From Escherichia phage L27, in sequence record LC473039.1: 64,000 bases of DNA, one strand, 5' to 3'. Made by a program: the position numbers and the translations under genes. Shown piece after piece: positions 35,083-42,446 of the stretch (position 1 is its first letter; each line of letters starts with the position of its first letter). Below the pieces are notes generated by a model, which saw only the letters and a program-made list of their open reading frames with translations, ran no database searches and had not been told where the DNA came from.

Positions 35083-36498
35083 ATGAGCGAGTTATTTAAA
35101 CATGCGCACCTTCATGCAGGTCGAACTGAAAATGGTGCTGTAAACCATACTTCATCAATGTCTGCTCTGGTAGACTTCTACAAAGCCGCTGGCTCAAGCC
35201 GTAGCAATGTAGAAATCTTACCAGACCTGTTCTACAAAGCTTTGCGTGAGGATGTTGATGTTGCAGTTCGTATTTTACTGCATATGCGAGATGTACGAGA
35301 AGGTATGGGTGAGCGTAAAGCTTTCCGAACTGTTTTACTTCAAGCGATTGAAGATAAGGTTTTAGAACCTACACAGGTTCTTCGCATTATGGATAAGATT
35401 GCAGAACTTGGTCGTTTTGATGACTTCAAAATCTTCGTAGGTACTCGTTTCGAGACAGATGCCTTCAAACATTTAGAAGCAGCATTACTAGACCCTGCAA
35501 CAGCAGGTTTAGCAGCTAAGTGGTTGCCACGAGTAAAACCACGCCACAAACAGTTTGTAAAACGTTTCTGTAAGTTTGCAAACTTAAGCGAGAAGGAGTA
35601 TCGCACACTGCTATCTGCACTGTCTGATACGGTTGAGCAAAAAATCTCTGCTAATGAGTTTGGTAAGATTGACTACAGCAAGATTCCTTCACTCGCTGCT
35701 GCACGTTACCAAAAGCTCTTTAACCGTAAAGATGGAGAGCGTTACAAAGCTTACATCGAATCATTATCAAAGGGTGAGGTTAAGATTAATGCTGGTGCTG
35801 TTTACCCATATGATGTGATTAAATCTATTAAGTATGGTAATGCAGATGTTGCTAATGAGCAGTGGAAAGCACTTCCAAACTGGATGGCAGAAGGTGAAAA
35901 CATCTTGTGTATGACTGATGTTTCAAGCTCAATGTCTTGGGTGAATCTTGGTTCAATCACTGCCCTTGATATTGGTGTATCACTTGCCTTGTATGTAGCA
36001 GAACGCAATACAGGTTGCTTTAAAGATGAGTTAATGGTCTATTCAACAAACCCTCATTTCATTGAACTGAGTGGTGATTTACGAAACCGTCATCGTCAGG
36101 TAATGCGTCATGTTGAATATGGTTCAACTAACTTACAAGCAGCTTTTGACCGTATTCTTGAGGTAGGTAAGAGAAACAACTTGACTCAGAAAGATATGCC
36201 AAGTAAGCTTATTATCTTCTCTGATATGGAGTTTAATCAGGTTGATGGTGCAAATGGTCGTACAAACTTTGAAGCAATTCAGAGTAAGTACAAAAAAGCT
36301 GGATACGAAATGCCACAACTAGTATTCTGGTACTTAGCAAACCGTAATGGTACTTGCGAAGTATCTGTTAAGGATAATGGTGTAGCAATGGTATCAGGGT
36401 TCTCTCCAGCCACTTTAAAAGCTCTGCTTGGTGGTGAGAAGTTTGACCCAATCAGTGTAATGCTCAAAGCGGTAATGATTGACCGTTATATCTGGTAA
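35083..36498 (+). CDS. von Willebrand factor A (vWA) domain protein with MIDAS motif; N-terminal domain of unknown family
   Basis: MIDAS D-x-S-x-S in MTDVSSSMSW, downstream TNLQAAFD and IIFSDMEFN; 471 aa. Confidence 0.55.
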   Translation: MSELFKHAHLHAGRTENGAVNHTSSMSALVDFYKAAGSSRSNVEILPDLFYKALREDVDVAVRILLHMRDVREGMGERKAFRTVLLQAIEDKVLEPTQVLRIMDKIAELGRFDDFKIFVGTRFETDAFKHLEAALLDPATAGLAAKWLPRVKPRHKQFVKRFCKFANLSEKEYRTLLSALSDTVEQKISANEFGKIDYSKIPSLAAARYQKLFNRKDGERYKAYIESLSKGEVKINAGAVYPYDVIKSIKYGNADVANEQWKALPNWMAEGENILCMTDVSSSMSWVNLGSITALDIGVSLALYVAERNTGCFKDELMVYSTNPHFIELSGDLRNRHRQVMRHVEYGSTNLQAAFDRILEVGKRNNLTQKDMPSKLIIFSDMEFNQVDGANGRTNFEAIQSKYKKAGYEMPQLVFWYLANRNGTCEVSVKDNGVAMVSGFSPATLKALLGGEKFDPISVMLKAVMIDRYIW

Positions 36499-36663: not shown

Positions 36664-36740
36664 CTCTGTTTAGCTCAGCTTGGTAGAGCGTTCCGTTTGG
36701 GGCGGTAAGGCCGGAGGTTCAAGTCCTCCAACAGAGACCA
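36664..36740 (+). tRNA. tRNA-Pro (anticodon TGG)
   Basis: Manual fold: acceptor CTCTGTT/AACAGAG, D-arm GCTC/GAGC, T-arm GGAGG-TTCAAGT-CCTCC, CCA encoded. Confidence 0.75.
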
Positions 36741-36747
36741 AATTAAT

Positions 36748-36825
36748 GTTCCAGTAGACAAAATGGTATAGTCACCACTCTTTCAAAGTGGATATTTGAG
36801 GGTTCAAATCCCTTCTGGAACGCCA
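36748..36825 (+). tRNA. tRNA-Glu (anticodon TTC)
   Basis: Acceptor GTTCCAG/CTGGAAC, anticodon arm CCACT-CTTTCAA-AGTGG, T-loop TTCAAAT, CCA. Confidence 0.75.
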
Positions 36826-36916
36826 GTTTTGACAGAAGACCAATTACAGCAAACTTAATCTTATTCATCTGAAGGTAAATCGGACAAAGAAGAGACTTGG
36901 TCTGGTCATTAAGAAT

Positions 36917-36993
36917 TGCGGGTATAGAGAAAGGGCGTCTCACATGTCTCATTAGCATGGTATCGGCAGGTTCGACTCCTGCACCCGCCTCCA
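36917..36993 (+). tRNA. tRNA with CAT anticodon (Met / fMet / Ile-lysidine)
   Basis: Anticodon arm CATGT-CTCATTA-GCATG, T-arm GCAGG-TTCGACT-CCTGC; possible 1:72 mismatch; CCA. Confidence 0.65.
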
Positions 36994-37077
36994 AATTTAC
37001 AGAAGACCGTTTACAGCAAAATTGAATGAAATTTTTAGCGGAAAAATTGAAAGATACGGTCTGGTAATACTAAACAT

Positions 37078-37151
37078 GGTTAGGAAGCACATAAGGTATG
37101 TGCGGTCGCCTGTTAAGCGAATGGCACAGGGTTCGAATCCCTGACTAACCG
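37078..37151 (+). tRNA. tRNA-Asn (anticodon GTT)
   Basis: D-arm GCAC/GTGC, anticodon loop CTGTTAA, T-arm CAGGG-TTCGAAT-CCCTG. Confidence 0.7.
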
Positions 37152-37163
37152 CAAAATTTAAAT

Positions 37164-37251
37164 GTGTCGTTATCCCGTAGATGGTAGCGGTGGGGACTGT
37201 AAATCCCTTGTCATTGAGACTCGGTAGGTTCGACTCCTACACGGCACACCA
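37164..37251 (+). tRNA. tRNA-Tyr (anticodon GTA), long variable arm
   Basis: Acceptor GTGTCGT/ACGGCAC, anticodon loop CTGTAAA, T-arm GTAGG-TTCGACT-CCTAC, CCA. Confidence 0.75.
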
Positions 37252-37273
37252 ACACTTAGCGAGATACTTAGTT

Positions 37274-37702
37274 ATGAGAGATGAAGTATACAAATCACAA
37301 CTTGGTATGAGTTTGGGAACTGCACAAAACAGACTAGTAAAAGATTTGCTATTCGATTTTATATGTAAGACAAATCAAAATAGATGTTTTCAGTGCGGAA
37401 AAGAAATGACTAGGGATGATTTCTCTATCGAGCATAAGATTCCGTGGAGACATAGTGAGAATGCAAAAGAGCTTTTCTTTTCACTAGATAATATTTCTTA
37501 TAGTCATCTTAAATGTAACATGAAAGCAGCAAGACCAGCACAGATAAGTGAAAGAAAACATAAAACAATTAAACACGGAACTGCGTATAGTTATTTTAAA
37601 GGCTGTAGATGCGATGAGTGTAGGTTGGCTAAGAATGCTGAGAGTAGAAGAAACTATAGTCCAGAAAGACGTAGGAAGAAGTATCTAAGAAATGGCACAT
37701 GA
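37274..37702 (+). CDS. HNH homing endonuclease (tRNA-cluster embedded)
   Basis: HNH core SIEHKIPW...SHLKCN; C-terminal YFKGCRCDECR; ORF-track start 37181 overlaps tRNA-Tyr, ATG 37274 used. Confidence 0.7.
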   Translation: MRDEVYKSQLGMSLGTAQNRLVKDLLFDFICKTNQNRCFQCGKEMTRDDFSIEHKIPWRHSENAKELFFSLDNISYSHLKCNMKAARPAQISERKHKTIKHGTAYSYFKGCRCDECRLAKNAESRRNYSPERRRKKYLRNGT

Positions 37703-37705
37703 ATT

Positions 37706-37781
37706 TGGGGTATTAGTTTAGACGGGTAAAATACGGGATTGTCTCTCCTGAGCCGCGAGTTCGATTCTCGCATACCTCGCC
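37706..37781 (+). tRNA. tRNA, anticodon GTC (Asp) or TGT (Thr) depending on fold
   Basis: Acceptor GGGGTAT/ATACCTC, T-arm GCGAG-TTCGATT-CTCGC, CCA; anticodon loop ambiguous. Confidence 0.6.
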
Positions 37782-38212
37782 AATTTTGAGAGGGCTATTT
37801 AGCCCCTCCCTTAAAGGGTTCTTACGAGTATCTTTTAAAGGAGCAGAAGACCAAATACAGCAAGAACGTATGAAAATTTCAAGCCAATTTAATTTTGAAA
37901 AATTTAAAACTTGGTCTGGCTCAACAAATTTACAGAAGACCGTTTACAGCAAAACTTAAACAATCTATTTCTCGGTAAAGAAAAGGCGAAGGTTCGATTC
38001 CTTCACTCGGCAGATGTCGAGTTGGTGTAATGGTAGCACTTAAGATGATAAACAACGGTCTGGTAATTATCTTTGTAGATAAGTTATTAAGCTTACCTGT
38101 GAGTATGCGACCACAAAGGGTGAAAGGGTAAATTCTAGATTTAAACCCAACAAGGCACATCGCTACAGACCTTAAGCAAGTCTGGGTAGCTTATCTACAA
38201 AGATAATTTAAT

Positions 38213-38288
38213 GGAAGTGTAGCAGAATGGTGATGCGGTAGACTTTTAATCTGACAGGCGATGGGTTCGAATCCCTCCACTTCTACCA
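38213..38288 (+). tRNA. tRNA-Lys (anticodon TTT), atypical T-stem
   Basis: Acceptor GGAAGTG/CACTTCT, anticodon loop CTTTTAA, T-loop TTCGAAT, CCA. Confidence 0.55.
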
Positions 38289-38292
38289 AAAT

Positions 38293-38369
38293 GGTTCAGT
38301 CGCAGATAAGGTAATGCAAGGGTCTCATAAGCCCTATGAATGTGGGTTCGATTCCCATCTGAACCTCCA
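38293..38369 (+). tRNA. second tRNA with CAT anticodon (Met/Ile2)
   Basis: Acceptor GGTTCAG/CTGAACC, anticodon arm AGGGT-CTCATAA-GCCCT, T-loop TTCGATT, CCA. Confidence 0.7.
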
Positions 38370-38377
38370 ATTTATAG

Positions 38378-38872
38378 GTGATACTTATGATTTGTGCCAA
38401 CAAAGATTGCAGAAATGAAGCCGTTAAAGGTGGAAAATTTTGCTCACGCTCTTGTTCTGCAAAAGTGAACAACAAGAAACACCCAAAGAGAAGTCAGGAA
38501 GGCTCTTGCCATTCATGCGGAAAGGTAACGCCAAAAGCGAGAAAATACTGTGACGAATGTATTGCAGGTGGAGTCATGAAAAAACATAAGACCCATCATG
38601 AAAAAAGCAAAGCCAAATCACTGCACGTTAAAAAGTCTCGTGACAGACTGAAGAAGGCTTTAGTTGATTACAAGGGTGGTTGTTGTTCAATTTGTGGTTA
38701 CAATAGGTGCATAAAGGCTCTAGAGTTTCACCACTTAGACCCTAAGACAAAAGACTTCACAGTAAGTAAAAAACACTACTCACTGGCTACAATGCAGTCT
38801 GAAGTTGATAAGTGTGTCTTGCTTTGTGCAAATTGCCACAGAGAAGTACACGAAGGGGTAACAATGCTGTGA
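38378..38872 (+). CDS. HNH homing endonuclease (zinc-binding)
   Basis: Multiple CxxC pairs and HNH motif EFHHLDPKTKD...CANCHREVH; RBS AGGTGA. Confidence 0.7.
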   Translation: MILMICANKDCRNEAVKGGKFCSRSCSAKVNNKKHPKRSQEGSCHSCGKVTPKARKYCDECIAGGVMKKHKTHHEKSKAKSLHVKKSRDRLKKALVDYKGGCCSICGYNRCIKALEFHHLDPKTKDFTVSKKHYSLATMQSEVDKCVLLCANCHREVHEGVTML

Positions 38873-38941
38873 AAGCACATATGGATGTGCATTCGGCTGA
38901 TAACCGAAAGGCAGAAGGTTCAAATCCTTCTCACAGTACCA
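38866..38941 (+). tRNA. tRNA-Ile (anticodon GAT)
   Basis: Start overlaps HNH stop codon; D-arm GCAC/GTGC, anticodon arm TTCGG-CTGATAA-CCGAA, T-arm GAAGG-TTCAAAT-CCTTC, CCA. Confidence 0.75.
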
Positions 38942-38956
38942 ATTTCAATAAAGTTG

Positions 38957-38985
38957 TTGACATTGAGATGTGACTACTTTATAGT
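38957..38985 (+). promoter_or_regulatory. strong sigma70 consensus promoter (TTGACA-N17-TATAGT) inside tRNA cluster
   Basis: GTTGTTGACATTGAGATGTGACTACTTTATAGTAACC; ~200-nt untranslated leader before next tRNA. Confidence 0.6.
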
Positions 38986-39189
38986 AACCTTAGTTTTCGT
39001 TGCGTAGCGTCTATTTTGCAAATTTAAAATAAATGCAAACGACAATGTTTTTCTGGCAGTAGCTTGATAGGCTAAACACCAGTGAGGTCTTCCAATCCCT
39101 CATCAAAGAATTTGGCGTACTCGCCCACGGTATGATTAATAAGGTGGGCATCTTTAAGGGCTTTCTAAGAGAGTCTTTAAAGATAATTA

Positions 39190-39271
39190 CGGGGCGTATC
39201 TCAGCGGTCTTCTAAACCGCCGTTAACCGAGTAAGTGGAGTATGCGGGTTCGAGTCCTGCCGCCTCGACCA
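39190..39271 (+). tRNA. atypical tRNA-like gene (possible tRNA-Arg, anticodon TCT; D-arm not resolvable)
   Basis: Good acceptor CGGGGCG/CGCCTCG, T-arm GCGGG-TTCGAGT-CCTGC and CCA; perfect stem-loop GCGGT-CTTCTAA-ACCGC but spacing non-canonical. Confidence 0.4.
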
Positions 39272-39414
39272 ATTTAGTTAGCAGATTACTTAGACGACCT
39301 AAGCGGGTCTTCCTGTAGGGAGGTGGTCTGTATCTCATGTTTTCCAGAACATGTAAATAATCTGAGAAGGGGCTTTACAGTGTTGAGATAATACGGTAAG
39401 CTTCGAATTATAGT

Positions 39415-39497
39415 ATGGGACGATGTTAAGACTCTAAGGCATGAGCAACGGCTTCCAACACCGTTTCAAAGGGGTTCAACTCCTCCGTCCCATGCCA
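39415..39497 (+). tRNA. tRNA-Trp (anticodon CCA) candidate with enlarged D region
   Basis: Acceptor ATGGGAC/GTCCCAT perfect, anticodon region ACGG-CTTCCAACA-CCGT resembles Trp arm, T-loop TTCAACT, CCA. Confidence 0.5.
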
Positions 39498-39510
39498 AAG
39501 TCTTATTAGG

Positions 39511-39600
39511 GGTAGGTAGCGGCTAATGGTAGCCAAACAGTCTTGAAAACTGTTGCCACTGTAGAGATACGGTGAGGGTTCGACTCCTTTACTTACCGCC
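39511..39600 (+). tRNA. tRNA-Ser (anticodon TGA), long variable arm
   Basis: Anticodon arm ACAGT-CTTGAAA-ACTGT, variable arm ~20 nt, T-loop TTCGACT. Confidence 0.7.
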
Positions 39601-39854
39601 TAATAAGATTTTACACCGTCCATGCTTGCTCGCATTTTCGGTTTATCCCTCGTGTATTGTCGTACACTGATAAAGCACCTAGTAGGTGTCACGGAGAAGA
39701 GATAATATCAAGCTCTCCAAAGGTTCTAGTCACCGGATTAAACAAGACTATGCAAAGACCAAATTAGGTCTTTTTAGAGGGCTTCTAAGGTTATTACAGC
39801 TTGTTGTGGAACCTTGTTGCTTAGGTTCTTAGAAGTTCTCTAAAAAGATTTAAT

Positions 39855-39932
39855 GGGAGATTGACGGTAATTGGTAAACCTATCTCGCTTAGAACGAGAT
39901 GTTTGAGGGTTCGAATCCCTTGTCTCCTACCA
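39855..39932 (+). tRNA. tRNA with anticodon TAG (Leu) but short variable arm
   Basis: Anticodon arm TCTCG-CTTAGAA-CGAGA, T-arm GAGGG-TTCGAAT-CCCTT, CCA. Confidence 0.55.
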
Positions 39933-39939
39933 AATTAAT

Positions 39940-40015
39940 GCAGGTGTAGCAAAATGGTTATGCGGCTGACTCTTAATCAGTAAGACGATGGGTTCAATTC
40001 CCTCCACCTGTACCA
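39940..40015 (+). tRNA. tRNA-Lys (anticodon CTT), atypical T-stem shared with Lys-TTT
   Basis: Acceptor GCAGGTG/CACCTGT, anticodon arm GCTGA-CTCTTAA-TCAGT, CCA. Confidence 0.55.
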
Positions 40016-40021
40016 GACATT

Positions 40022-40097
40022 GGGGATGTAGTTTACATGGTTAAAACATAAGTTTTGCAAACTTAAGTACAGGGTTCAATTCCCTGCTTCTCCACCA
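40022..40097 (+). tRNA. tRNA-Ala (anticodon TGC)
   Basis: D-arm GTTT/AAAC, anticodon arm TAAGT-TTTGCAA-ACTTA, T-arm CAGGG-TTCAATT-CCCTG, CCA. Confidence 0.65.
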
Positions 40098-40103
40098 ATT
40101 AGT

Positions 40104-40178
40104 GCATCCATAGTTTAAACGGGAAAATTGCAGTCTTCCAAACTGAGGTTGAGGGTTCGATTCCCTCTGGATGCTCCA
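40104..40178 (+). tRNA. tRNA-Gly (anticodon TCC)
   Basis: Acceptor GCATCCA/TGGATGC, anticodon loop CTTCCAA, T-arm GAGGG-TTCGATT-CCCTC, CCA. Confidence 0.7.
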
Positions 40179-40184
40179 AATAAA

Positions 40185-40261
40185 GCTGCTTTCGTATAAT
40201 TGGCTATTACACATCCCTTGTAAGGATGGAAATGCAGGTTCGAGTCCTGTGAGCAGCACCA
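40185..40261 (+). tRNA. tRNA-Thr (anticodon TGT)
   Basis: Anticodon arm CATCC-CTTGTAA-GGATG, T-loop TTCGAGT, CCA. Confidence 0.75.
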
Positions 40262-40356
40262 ATTCAGAGGTCAAGTGAAAGACCGCTGGTGTCAACTGAA
40301 GACCGTAACAAATTCCACGGAGTTGAGTTAGCGGCACAACTTCAGACCTCTTTCAC

Positions 40357-40431
40357 ACTCGCTTAGTTTATATGGTAAAACATCACCCTTACAAGATGAA
40401 GAAAAAGGTTCAAGTCCTTTAGTGAGTACCA
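40357..40431 (+). tRNA. tRNA-Val (anticodon TAC)
   Basis: D-arm GTTT/AAAC, anticodon loop CTTACAA, T-arm AAAGG-TTCAAGT-CCTTT, CCA. Confidence 0.65.
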
Positions 40432-40432
40432 T

Positions 40433-40510
40433 GTTCCAGTATCCCAATTGGCAGAGGATGCAAGCTCAAACCTTGTATTAGTGACGGTTCGAATCCGTCT
40501 TGGAACACCA
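40433..40510 (+). tRNA. tRNA with anticodon CAA (Leu) but short variable arm
   Basis: Acceptor GTTCCAG/TTGGAAC, anticodon arm GCAAG-CTCAAAC-CTTGT, T-arm GACGG-TTCGAAT-CCGTC, CCA. Confidence 0.55.
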
Positions 40511-40529
40511 ATTTTAAGAGGCTATTTAG

Positions 40530-41087
40530 ATGAGATATTTGAAGTATGCTTCATGGATTTTCCTAGCTTTACTAGAGCCATTTGCAGCAACCCTAGCAGT
40601 CATCTTAGCACCTTTCGTAGTCCCATTCTACAGTGAGAAGAAAGGGCATCTACCTTTTGGATTCAGATGGATGGAGACCTATGACAACCCGATTGATGGT
40701 GATGAAGGCCACGTTAAAAGATGGGCTAAGATTAGAAAGATTGGTAAGCTGGGTGTCTACATGCAGAGAGTTGGGTGGCTCTGGAGAAACAAAGCTTATA
40801 ACTTCTCTTACCATGTATTAGGAAGAGATGTAAAAGATGTTACTAAGTGGAAAGGTAATATCAACGTAAGTTCTAACCCTGAAGATAATCAAACAGGTTA
40901 TCTCCTAATGTGGAACAGAAATGCTTGGGGTTTATTTGCTTTTATCCCATCAATTAAAGTCTTTGGTAAACAGTTTTACTGGAGAATTTATATTGGATGG
41001 AAACTAAAAAGTGTTGTCCCAGAAGAAAGAGCATTCTCAAGGGAAAGAGTTATGTTGGCATTCTTTATTCATCCACTGAGAAAGTAA
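40530..41087 (+). CDS. hypothetical membrane protein encoded inside the tRNA cluster
   Basis: 185 aa, N-terminal TM helix, Trp/Arg-rich; no overlap with tRNAs. Confidence 0.45.
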   Translation: MRYLKYASWIFLALLEPFAATLAVILAPFVVPFYSEKKGHLPFGFRWMETYDNPIDGDEGHVKRWAKIRKIGKLGVYMQRVGWLWRNKAYNFSYHVLGRDVKDVTKWKGNINVSSNPEDNQTGYLLMWNRNAWGLFAFIPSIKVFGKQFYWRIYIGWKLKSVVPEERAFSRERVMLAFFIHPLRK

Positions 41088-41095
41088 AGATTTAA

Positions 41096-41171
41096 AGGGG
41101 ATTAGTTTACAAGGTTAAAACCTCGGTCTTTGAAATCGAAGAAGTTGGTTCAATTCCAACATCCCCCGCCA
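41096..41171 (+). tRNA. tRNA-Gln (anticodon TTG)
   Basis: D-arm GTTT/AAAC, anticodon arm TCGGT-CTTTGAA-ATCGA, T-arm GTTGG-TTCAATT-CCAAC, CCA. Confidence 0.65.
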
Positions 41172-41173
41172 AT

Positions 41174-41252
41174 GCTCCATTACTCCAATTGGCAGAGAGG
41201 CCAGACTTAAAATCTGTGTTATGTATCGGTTCGAATCCGATATGGAGTACCA
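41174..41252 (+). tRNA. tRNA with anticodon TAA (Leu), short variable arm
   Basis: Acceptor GCTCCAT/ATGGAGT, anticodon loop CTTAAAA, T-arm ATCGG-TTCGAAT-CCGAT, CCA. Confidence 0.55.
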
Positions 41253-41257
41253 AATTT

Positions 41258-41333
41258 AGCGGTATAGCATAACTGGCAATGCAGCAGTCTCTGAAGCTGT
41301 CCTATTAAGGTTCAAATCCTTATGCCGCTGCCA
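41258..41333 (+). tRNA. tRNA-Gln (anticodon CTG)
   Basis: D-arm GCAT/ATGC, anticodon loop CTCTGAA, T-arm TAAGG-TTCAAAT-CCTTA, CCA. Confidence 0.65.
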
Positions 41334-41364
41334 CTTCTAAGGGTTCTTACGAGAGTCCTTAAAT

Positions 41365-41440
41365 GTGGCCTTATCATAAATGGTAATGACCCATGCTGTG
41401 AACATGGTCTATACGGGTTCAAATCCCGTAGGTCACCCCA
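41365..41440 (+). tRNA. tRNA-His (anticodon GTG)
   Basis: Anticodon arm CCATG-CTGTGAA-CATGG, T-arm ACGGG-TTCAAAT-CCCGT, CCA. Confidence 0.75.
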
Positions 41441-41445
41441 ATTTA

Positions 41446-41521
41446 TAGTCCAAGTAGCTTATATGGTAAAGCGCGTGTCTGAAAAACATGAGAAGAGGGT
41501 TCAAATCCCACTGGACTACCA
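41446..41521 (+). tRNA. tRNA-Phe (anticodon GAA)
   Basis: D-arm GCTT/AAGC, anticodon arm CGTGT-CTGAAAA-ACATG, T-loop TTCAAAT; acceptor pairing imperfect in manual fold. Confidence 0.6.
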
Positions 41522-41537
41522 ATTTCAAAGGTGCTTA

Positions 41538-42272
41538 ATGAAAGAGATGACAGAACAAGGTAAGGAGATTTTTAATCTCTTAAAAACCGGTAAAGGGTTT
41601 TCTAACCCACTTATTACTGGTGCAGCAGTTCTCGGTGGAACCGTAGCTGCCTCTACATCACTTGTAAACTCTATTAGTTCTGTAACAGACCCTACAATGA
41701 AGGATAAACTTGTTGCTGCTGGACTTACAACAGTCCTTCTAAACAGCTTTACAACAAGCCTTACAAGCACTACAGCAACTACTAAGACCCTAACAGACTA
41801 CGGTCAAAAGTCTATTGATGAGTTTTCATCACGTATGCAGGTAGCAAAGGGATACTCCAATGTTATGGGTGCAGCAGGAGAACAAGTTGGTTGTACACCA
41901 TTCAGTGGTATTATGGGTGTTGCTACAGAGTATGGTCAAAAAGCTATTGACACGATTAACAGTACACTGGATAGTGTTAATGATGTGTTAAGTGACTTAC
42001 AAGATGCTATTGATAAGGGTCTTGATACTGTTTCTGATTTAGCTAACCAAGCTGTAAGTAAAATTAATGAAGGTATTTCAAAGATTACAGCTTATGCAGA
42101 TGAAGTTGTGCAGATGATTGAAGAAGAAGCTGCACTTATTGCAGAGTACCTTAAAACGAATATCAATGGGTTCTTAGCAGGTATCTTACCAGACTGGTTT
42201 GATGATGCTTGCAAAACTGGTGTAATTGACACTATTGCAACACCAGAAATGAAGAACGCATTACAGAAATAA
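41538..42272 (+). CDS. hypothetical Ser/Thr-rich protein (possible virion-associated)
   Basis: ATG 41538; ORF-track start 41322 overlaps four tRNAs and is rejected. Confidence 0.5.
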   Translation: MKEMTEQGKEIFNLLKTGKGFSNPLITGAAVLGGTVAASTSLVNSISSVTDPTMKDKLVAAGLTTVLLNSFTTSLTSTTATTKTLTDYGQKSIDEFSSRMQVAKGYSNVMGAAGEQVGCTPFSGIMGVATEYGQKAIDTINSTLDSVNDVLSDLQDAIDKGLDTVSDLANQAVSKINEGISKITAYADEVVQMIEEEAALIAEYLKTNINGFLAGILPDWFDDACKTGVIDTIATPEMKNALQK

Positions 42273-42273
42273 T

Positions 42274-42366
42274 GGAAGATTAACCCTAAAAGGTAAGGGA
42301 GCAGTTTGCTAAACTGCCAGTAGCTGAGAAATCGGTGTACCAGTTCAAGTCTGGTATCTTCCTCCA
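42274..42366 (+). tRNA. tRNA-Ser (anticodon GCT), long variable arm
   Basis: Acceptor GGAAGAT/ATCTTCC perfect, anticodon arm GCAGT-TTGCTAA-ACTGC, T-arm ACCAG-TTCAAGT-CTGGT, CCA. Confidence 0.75.
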
Positions 42367-42370
42367 ATTT

Positions 42371-42446
42371 GAATCCGTGACAGAAATGGCTATGTGCCTG
42401 TCTGCAAAACAGGTTTATAAGGGTTCGAGTCCCTTCGGATTCTCCA
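42371..42446 (+). tRNA. tRNA-Cys (anticodon GCA)
   Basis: Acceptor GAATCCG/CGGATTC perfect, anticodon arm CCTGT-CTGCAAA-ACAGG, T-arm AAGGG-TTCGAGT-CCCTT, CCA. Confidence 0.75.

Follow-up and report, generated by a model that had tools for sequence, protein, structure and literature searches.

The tRNA array of Escherichia phage L27 (sequence record LC473039.1) encodes a tRNA-like RNA whose helices are connected in an unusual order. This gene, element 1, lies at 39190..39271 on the + strand of the 64,000-nt stretch analyzed here (the window). It is near-certainly a selected, structured RNA belonging to a rewired family, and we put the probability at about two in three that it is a charged, ribosome-active elongator tRNA-Arg(UCU) on a rewired core. 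A second gene, element 2 (39415..39497, +), is most likely a lineage-specific, non-canonical tRNA-Trp(CCA) of uncertain activity. Both elements are conserved with compensatory changes and are not chance foldings.

The window carries the tRNA array of a Felix O1-like myovirus (Felixounavirus), and positions 38900-39900 match Felixounavirus records with 95-98% identity, phage NBSal004 being the top match. ARAGORN detected 24 tRNA genes in the window, all on the + strand at 36664-42446, with 18 amino acids represented and no Arg or Trp tRNA among the calls. Both elements are absent from these calls and sit, unannotated, between tRNA-Ile (38866-38941) and tRNA-Ser (39511-39600).

Architecture and family of element 1

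Element 1 reads CGGGGCG-UAU-CUC-A-GCGGU-CUUCUAA-ACCGC-CGUUAACC-GAG-UAAGUGGAGUAU-GCGGG-UUCGAGU-CCUGC-CGCCUCG-A-CCA, including an encoded CCA. The acceptor stem, formed by CGGGGCG (39190..39196) and CGCCUCG (39261-39267), contains 7 bp, one of them G.U. It is followed by a UAU linker resembling U8/A9 (39197..39199) and by CUC (39200..39202), a D-stem-like strand that pairs across the anticodon arm with GAG (39229..39231) to form an extra helix, supported on both strands by covariation and mutual information. The enclosed anticodon arm GCGGU-CUUCUAA-ACCGC (39204..39220) carries UCU at 39211-39213 and is joined to GAG by the linker CGUUAACC (39221..39228), which has the consensus CRUUAAYN, spans 8-11 nt in the family and was kept in a pattern scan that left this stretch free. 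The last linker base and A39203 act as a further layer, which is A.C, C.A, C-G or A-U. Beyond GAG lies a D-loop-like strand, UAAGUGGAGUAU (39232..39243), with G18/G19-like bases at 39237-39238 and an A20-like base at 39239. The T arm GCGGG-UUCGAGU-CCUGC (39244..39260) and the acceptor 3' strand with discriminator A39268 and CCA (39261..39271) are both supported by the Rfam alignment and by covariation.

The Rfam tRNA model (RF00005) scored element 1 at 31.7 bits, relative to a threshold of 29, and aligned it with 4 nt where the model has a D arm of 15 nt, and with 20 inserted nt ahead of the T arm. Element 1 has the 7-bp acceptor, CCA, 5-bp T stem, UUCRANY loop, 5-bp/7-nt anticodon arm, U33 and purine 37 of a cloverleaf, and has no D hairpin between positions 10 and 25, since only 7 nt separate the acceptor and anticodon stems. 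This agrees with a preliminary description of the stretch, which had noted the acceptor stem, T arm, CCA and TCT hairpin and the lack of room for a D arm, and which had offered pseudogenes, misfolds or non-canonical tRNAs as explanations for the atypical tRNAs. Covariance-model scoring, which it had suggested as a check, gave the above 31.7 bits without a D arm for element 1 and no tRNA match for element 2. Neither element was refolded as a canonical cloverleaf by covariance models or ARAGORN, which removes the misfold option.

Three other foldings of element 1 were considered and rejected. A canonical refolding, using GCGG/CCGC as the D stem and the next 23 nt as the anticodon arm, has the right lengths; its stem is unpaired and it has no U33. 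A pairing of CUC with a second GAG (39238-39240) would set a variable middle base of CUC (T, G, A or C) against a GAG that never changes. In the minimum-free-energy hairpin CCG/UGG (39227-39229 with 39236-39238), column 39 is often A while its partner G is invariant.

BLAST searches matched element 1 to 262 GenBank phage records, nearly all of which leave the gene unannotated or label it 'tRNA-OTHER'; 'tRNA-pseudo' is also used in some records. Phages with no relationship to Felix O1 carry it at 82-90% identity, for example Klebsiella phage Sugarland (T5-like), the jumbo phages Ecwhy_1 and PBECO4, Proteus phage Mydo, Klebsiella mydoviruses, phi92, PD06, phages of Serratia and Vibrio, and the Streptomyces phages Genie2 and Yaboi. 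An alignment of six copies revealed that the stems compensate while the unpaired stretches are near-invariant, with CUC...GAG becoming CGC...GCG in a Streptomyces phage. Scanning IMG/VR, GTDB genomes and JGI metagenomes with sequence patterns extended the family to 147 distinct sequences with the scaffold acc7-UAU-CNC-N-(anticodon arm)-8 to 11 nt-GNG-UAAnUGGNGYAU-(T arm)-acc7, in which CNC and GNG are paired. The UAU linker is present in every family member, an invariance partly set by the search patterns and also seen in the BLAST-derived matches, and the anticodon loop is C/U32-U33-NNN-A37-A/C38 in all members.

The proposed pairing was assessed in 43 sequences. In the four-helix structure 99.1% of cells are paired, as compared to 69% in shuffles, which do not give probabilities because the sequences are related, and 34-46% with slid partners. 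Changes on both sides were observed in 16 of 20 pairs, and all seven acceptor pairs and all five anticodon-stem pairs are compensatory. The middle pair of the extra helix is UA in 32 sequences, GC in 7, AU in 3 and CG in 1, and is broken in none; its mutual information of 1.46 bits is the third highest among column pairs, and all of the top column pairs are proposed pairs. Because the search patterns had fixed some invariant columns, a covariance model (R1) was built as an independent check from 44 environmental members, without Ounavirinae or coliphage rows. In the 64-kb window, R1 found 39190-39268 with 95.6 bits (E about 1e-26), and the best canonical tRNA scored 32.3 bits.

As shown by this covariation, the secondary structure is a three-way junction, consisting of a canonical 7/5 acceptor/T branch and a CUC/GAG helix that encloses the anticodon arm. 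By analogy with canonical tRNAs, GAG-UAAnUGGA resembles the 5' strand of a D stem followed by a D loop (A14, R15, ..., G18, G19, N20), and CUC would be the usual D-stem 3' strand, supplied from the other side of the anticodon arm. The UAU after the acceptor stem and the last U before the T stem could take the roles of U8 and U48. Rfam contains no dedicated family for this scaffold, and we found no description of it in open-access papers and bioRxiv preprints, an earlier report elsewhere being possible.

Two truncated Arg-type copies were also seen, in a Neisseriaceae metagenome-assembled genome (L141:about 1458-1520) and in an IMG/VR contig (L172). The 5' part is kept in both, and the sequences diverge after the T-stem 5' strand and after GCG-UAAU, respectively; they may be disrupted genes or recombination junctions.

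A second class was found on the same scaffold, with a UAU anticodon (Ile, codon AUA), U after GG, A73 and an 8-11-nt linker. It was exposed by a TATCNC...CTTCTAA scan, which otherwise returned mostly chance matches and canonical tRNA-Arg genes, and its members lie beside the latter, often a few bases after a canonical tRNA-Arg(UCU). Ile-type loci (L177:9333-9417, L192:9943, L194, L236, L240 and many metagenome loci, L262-L341) come only from uncultured, largely marine contigs, and BLAST of an Ile-type member against GenBank phages gave no match.

The 147 distinct members comprise 83 with UCU, 61 with UAU and one each with CCU, ACG and ACU. GG is followed by A in 86/86 members of the Arg type and by U in 60/61 of the Ile type (the other has GG-G), and the discriminator is A in 61/61 Ile-type and A or G in nearly all Arg-type members. 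Element 1 follows this rule, with A39239 accompanying UCU. The dependence of the GG-N base on the anticodon class is the strongest non-pair correlation of the alignment. For E. coli ArgRS the main determinant is A20, together with C35, U/G36 and A/G73, while recognition by IleRS involves the anticodon, A73 and positions of the D loop, D20 among them (PMC9976931). The identity bases of the family match these published Arg and Ile determinants, and the correlation is hard to explain unless synthetases read GG-N as a D loop. For element 1 itself, the determinants of arginine acceptance that can be recognized are the A20-like base, C35, U36 and A73.

Proposed decoding role of element 1 and alternative readings

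AGA, which is rare in enterobacterial hosts, is the commonest Arg codon in the open reading frames (ORFs) of the window, accounting for 282/673 Arg codons (42%) and 17.3 per 1000 codons. According to the Felix O1 genome paper, AGA is over-represented and a matching tRNA would have been expected, yet none of the 22 tRNAs detected by tRNAscan-SE was for AGA (PMC3185647). In Ounavirinae, the slot approximately 225 nt upstream of element 2 is occupied either by element 1 (12 loci) or by a canonical 77-nt tRNA-Arg(TCT) (at least 17 loci), and never by both. Since the flanks of the slot are homologous, this is a gene-for-gene replacement. Family members lie in tRNA arrays (median distance to the nearest tRNA: Arg type, 206 nt; Ile type, 11 nt), and many encode CCA. 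ARAGORN missed 138/141 Arg-type and 79/84 Ile-type copies, and a canonical tRNA with the same anticodon is found alongside at only 4/141 and 4/84 loci, respectively. The AGA demand, the gap in Felix O1, the alternation in the slot, the array setting and the rare co-occurrence with a canonical counterpart argue for element 1 as the AGA decoder of the phage.

In the proposed mechanism, the GG of the D-loop-like strand would dock on the T loop in the manner of G18/G19 and so produce an L shape. The A that follows would act as A20 and, together with C35, U36 and A/G73, would make the RNA a substrate of the host ArgRS, so that element 1 would supply AGA decoding. The sister class, with UAU, GG-U and A73, would do likewise for AUA (Ile).

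Several points weigh against this reading. With z = 0.04, single-sequence folding of element 1 does not stand out, and the 3-bp helix is missing from the predicted fold. RNAalifold recovered three helices and also left this one out; support for it comes from covariation and mutual information. The conservation of some invariant columns, set by the search patterns, is partly by construction. The three-dimensional picture (GG docking, L shape and the distance from anticodon to CCA) is drawn by analogy from the sequence, and the rewired core may be ill-suited to EF-Tu, the ribosome or modification enzymes. Charging, processing, expression and ribosome use are predictions from sequence comparison.

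One alternative accepts a functional tRNA and proposes that the D region has been selected for a special property beyond codon supply, such as a U34 restricted to the A-ending codons of the split boxes AGR/AGY and AUA/AUG, or escape from a host or phage factor that recognizes the canonical D arm. The scaffold is used by only the UCU and UAU classes, both with U34, A37 and an A-ending split-box codon, and it persists alongside canonical versions in related phages. The D-arm change in the Hirsh suppressor reportedly alters decoding. Changes in the anticodon stem are documented to do so (PMC13092985). The restriction to AGA and AUA could, however, just mirror the tRNAs most needed by AT-rich phages, and we consider a special property of this kind unlikely, if still worth keeping in view.

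It is improbable that element 1 is instead a tRNA mimic acting outside decoding, whether as a decoy or sponge for a tRNA-targeting nuclease of the host or for ArgRS, or as a regulatory or processing RNA, with a core that keeps it off the ribosome. The non-canonical core, which may not fit the ribosome, and the spread of the scaffold over phages of very different hosts are consistent with such a role, and phage tRNAs have been proposed to help evade host defences that target tRNAs (PMC10264068). However, the mutually exclusive use of one slot with canonical tRNA-Arg(UCU), combined with high AGA demand, points to functional equivalence. In addition, the anticodon loop retains all decoding features (C/U32, U33, A37), the synthetase identity bases follow the anticodon, the 7/5 acceptor branch recognized by EF-Tu is intact, and the mimic reading would need to account for the sister class with Ile(UAU) as well.

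A near-consensus sigma-70 promoter, TTGACA-17-TATAGT (11/12 matches), is present at 38957-38985, approximately 205 nt upstream of element 1, and a promoter is annotated at the equivalent place in phage ASO1A. In some relatives, an HNH endonuclease gene is annotated where the match to 39150-39520 splits into two pieces.

Element 2 and other features of the array

Element 2 consists of an acceptor stem ATGGGAC/GTCCCAT (39415-39421/39487-39493), an invariant insert AUGUUAAG between acceptor and D stem (39423-39430; written (G)AUGUUAAG and called a 7-nt insert), a D stem CUC/GAG (39432-39434/39443-39445), an anticodon stem AACGG/CCGTT (39447-39451/39461-39465), a 9-nt loop CUUCCAACA (39452-39460) with CCA at 39455-39457, a T stem of 4 pairs plus A.C (39471-39474/39482-39485), and G73 (39494) followed by CCA. 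The CCA anticodon arm with its 9-nt loop and the oversized D region had been recognized in the preliminary description, and 26 nt indeed separate the acceptor and anticodon stems. The loop appears as 9 nt because 31:39 is C.A; it may otherwise be drawn as a 7-nt loop closed by C.A. Conserved A.C oppositions also occur at 10:25 and 49:65, and the C.A at 31:39 is C.C in Pectobacterium phages. G39422-C39486, an invariant pair, can form an eighth acceptor pair combined with a 4-bp T stem. No tRNA match to element 2 was obtained in Rfam, the best hit being tRNA-Sec with 16.9 bits (E about 1).

All copies of element 2 that were found come from Ounavirinae, namely from Felixounavirus, Mooglevirus, Suspvirus and Pectobacterium phages. 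Matches outside Ounavirinae in an IMG/VR motif scan were all chance matches in coding DNA, and a structure-aware scan of all retrieved loci revealed no further members. Among 13 variants, 98.8% of cells are paired and 8/20 pairs are compensatory. In the acceptor stem, 1:72 and 2:71 switch from A-U/U-A to G-C/C-G, 12:23 in the D stem alternates between U-A and A-U, the anticodon stem occurs as ACGG/CCGU, UAAG/CUUA and UAGG/CCUA, and 50:64 in the T stem changes from G-C to U-A. Bacterial Trp determinants are G73, a CCA anticodon and A1-U72, and element 2 has all three, with G1 in some variants. These features suggest the non-canonical tRNA-Trp(CCA) proposed above; a point against it is that the 13 variants reflect few independent events and that three of them carry one disruptive change.

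In wV8-type phages, the slot of element 2 holds a different, 71-nt tRNA-Trp(CCA) (L007:3161-3231, L009:3161-3231), which is called by ARAGORN and in which the D and anticodon stems appear to overlap. Elements 1 and 2 have a module in common, consisting of GUUAA, two bases, a 3-nt D-stem strand and UAA(N0-2)GG.

There is a slim chance that element 2 is a tRNA-Trp variant that reads UGA or shifts frame by means of its 9-nt or mismatch-closed loop. UGA can be read by a tRNA-Trp(CCA) whose anticodon stem is altered, although the known cases open 27:43 (PMC13092985), which is Watson-Crick paired in element 2, where the mismatch lies at 31:39. No recoding signal was seen in the window, and none was looked for; TGA ends 15/68 ORFs, which is unremarkable.

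That both elements are decaying pseudogenes (a tRNA-Arg minus its D arm plus junk, and a tRNA-Trp with insertions) is scarcely credible: it would account for the missing ARAGORN calls, the marginal (element 1) or absent (element 2) Rfam matches, the 'tRNA-pseudo' and 'tRNA-OTHER' labels and the single disruptive substitutions in 3/13 variants of element 2, but not for a family of 147 distinct sequences reaching into unrelated phages such as those of Streptomyces, with covariation in all four helices, near-invariant unpaired segments, R1 detection and gene-for-gene exchange with canonical tRNA-Arg(UCU), nor for the retention by compensation of all four element 2 helices across the four phage groups named above. 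For element 1 the pseudogene reading is already refuted by the comparative data, and for element 2 it is unlikely. Of the three options in the preliminary description, the non-canonical one is supported. The nesting helix, the GG-A strand, the widespread Arg and Ile family and the frequency of short Leu arms in phage arrays go beyond that description.

Its remaining observations, on Leu and Lys tRNAs, hold as well and concern minor variants. The three Leu tRNAs, said to lack the long variable arm, are tRNA-Leu(UAG) (39855..39932, +), tRNA-Leu(CAA) (40433..40510, +) and tRNA-Leu(UAA) (41174..41252, +), with variable regions of 5, 6 and 7 nt, respectively. They are 78-79 nt long including CCA, score 44-47.5 bits with the Rfam tRNA model, and have a Leu-like D loop AAUUGGYARA and A73. 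A C.U mismatch at 27:43 leaves tRNA-Leu(UAA) with a 4-bp anticodon stem. Neither anticodon nor long arm is required by E. coli LeuRS, so all three are probably ordinary LeuRS substrates, and among the tRNAscan-SE isotype models the one for Leu gives the best scores to their orthologues in phage Sf14 (PMC12482277). In diverse phage contigs, 53/123 distinct ARAGORN Leu calls are shorter than 80 nt (74-79 nt, with no long variable arm), in a sample biased toward loci fetched for other reasons, while the Ser tRNAs of the same phage loci are nearly all at least 85 nt and retain their long arm. We found no paper discussing short-arm phage Leu tRNAs. The two Lys tRNAs, tRNA-Lys(UUU) (38213..38288, +) and tRNA-Lys(CUU) (39940..40015, +), share the weak T stem ascribed to them, GA(U)GGG/CCCUC in both, which forms either three Watson-Crick pairs plus A.C and U.U or five pairs with a bulged U; they score 51-57 bits with the Rfam tRNA model.

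Immediately upstream of the array, an ORF of 471 aa (35083-36495, +) contains the Pfam domains DUF2828 and DUF7788. Its counterpart in phage REP8 is labelled 'RNA-binding protein', and a sequence search gave no PDB match. As a DUF2828 ORF adjoining an array with non-canonical tRNAs, it may be worth a look. Within the array, the ORF at 37265-37699 (+) has a Pfam HNH endonuclease domain, and the ORF at 38387-38869 (+) is Cys-rich with no Pfam match.

An orphan T-arm-like hairpin, AGGCGAAGGTTCGATTCCTTC, lies at 37984-38004 in the 430-nt gap between tRNA-Asp and tRNA-Lys. It matches only positions 43-63 of the Rfam tRNA model (14.9 bits), has no matching acceptor strand nearby, and may be a tRNA remnant or a piece of another RNA. 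An AT-rich inverted-repeat motif resembling AAGGGYTTTCTAAGAGAGTCTTTAAAG occurs at 37813-37835, 39156-39178, about 41340-41364 and about 39778-39850, a few bases upstream of the first tRNA in several sub-clusters. Two matches were found with at most 3 mismatches, relative to 0.04 expected, and two more, with small indels, were identified by eye; the motif may mark a site of processing or act as a promoter or terminator of the phage. Rfam matches to tmRNA, YrlA and miRNA models in the array were weak and were taken as noise.

Relation to known tRNA architectures

Outside organelles a single cloverleaf is assumed, and annotation tools, synthetase identity rules and decoding models rest on it. We lean slightly toward the broader proposition that phages have a second, hitherto unrecognized tRNA architecture that works on bacterial ribosomes, in which a strand-swapped D stem encloses the anticodon arm and a D-loop-like GG-N20 strand is retained. 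It would be specialized for two rare codons ending in A, AGA (Arg) and AUA (Ile), would have escaped tRNA finders, and would have passed horizontally between phages whose hosts are Proteobacteria, Actinobacteria or marine, Felix O1 and phi92 being among its carriers. If so, the core of the rewired tRNA has a new topology, more than one path of the chain leads to the L shape, and working tRNAs can be built in a second way. Annotation gaps would be filled, for AGA in Felix O1 and in at least 262 GenBank phages in which the gene is unannotated or 'tRNA-OTHER'. The scaffold would also be a natural test case for the D-region needs of ArgRS, IleRS, EF-Tu, RNase P, modification enzymes and the ribosome, and a compact scaffold for tRNA engineering, with the alternation with canonical tRNA-Arg(UCU) in sister phages as a ready-made experimental comparison.

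The canonical tRNA-Arg(UCU) of REP7-type Felixounaviruses (L034:340-416) and of the host (argU) has in common with element 1 the anticodon loop CUUCUAA, the 7/5 branch, the T loop, the encoded CCA, GG-A in a D-loop-like context and A/G73, and the REP7-type gene also occupies the same genomic slot. Element 1 differs in having no D hairpin, D-stem-like strands that flank the anticodon arm, a three-way rather than four-way junction, and an 8-nt linker CRUUAAYN plus a 12-nt strand in place of the D loop and variable loop.

Among other Trp and Leu tRNAs, a tRNA-Trp(CCA) whose anticodon stem has 4 bp (PMC13092985) resembles element 2 in its CCA anticodon and imperfect anticodon stem. In element 2, however, every variant has Watson-Crick or G.U pairs at 27:43 and 26:44, and the imperfection is the C.A at 31:39. 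Class II bacterial tRNA-Leu has the Leu-like D loop and A73 found in the window Leu tRNAs, with an arm of 13 nt or longer as compared to 5-7 nt.

Metazoan mitochondrial tRNA-Ser(AGY) likewise has no D hairpin between acceptor stem and anticodon stem, and has an extended anticodon-side helix. Mitochondrial D-armless tRNAs are about 55-65 nt long, have degenerate T and D loops and depend on specialized mitochondrial factors, whereas element 1, of 79 nt plus CCA, is not truncated to less than 70 nt, has a canonical T loop and invariant GG and must suit the bacterial machinery. The permuted tRNA genes of Cyanidioschyzon merolae also differ from canonical genes in segment order. Their mature tRNA is canonical after circularization and processing, in contrast to element 1, where the conserved pairing pattern points to rewiring of the mature RNA itself; we know of no circularizing tRNA processing pathway in bacteria. 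The allo-tRNAs and (8/4)/(9/3) tRNAs are likewise non-canonical, occur in bacteria and phages, and escape standard tools or are scored wrongly by them (Mukai et al. 2017, PMC5389517). They have a changed split of the 12-bp acceptor/T branch and mostly long variable arms, while element 1 has a normal 7/5 split and a changed D/anticodon branch, and element 2, which can be drawn as 8/4, has no long arm. D-armless mitochondrial tRNAs, (8/4)/(9/3) allo-tRNAs and red-alga permuted genes are the closest known kinds, and the wiring of element 1 differs from that of all of them.

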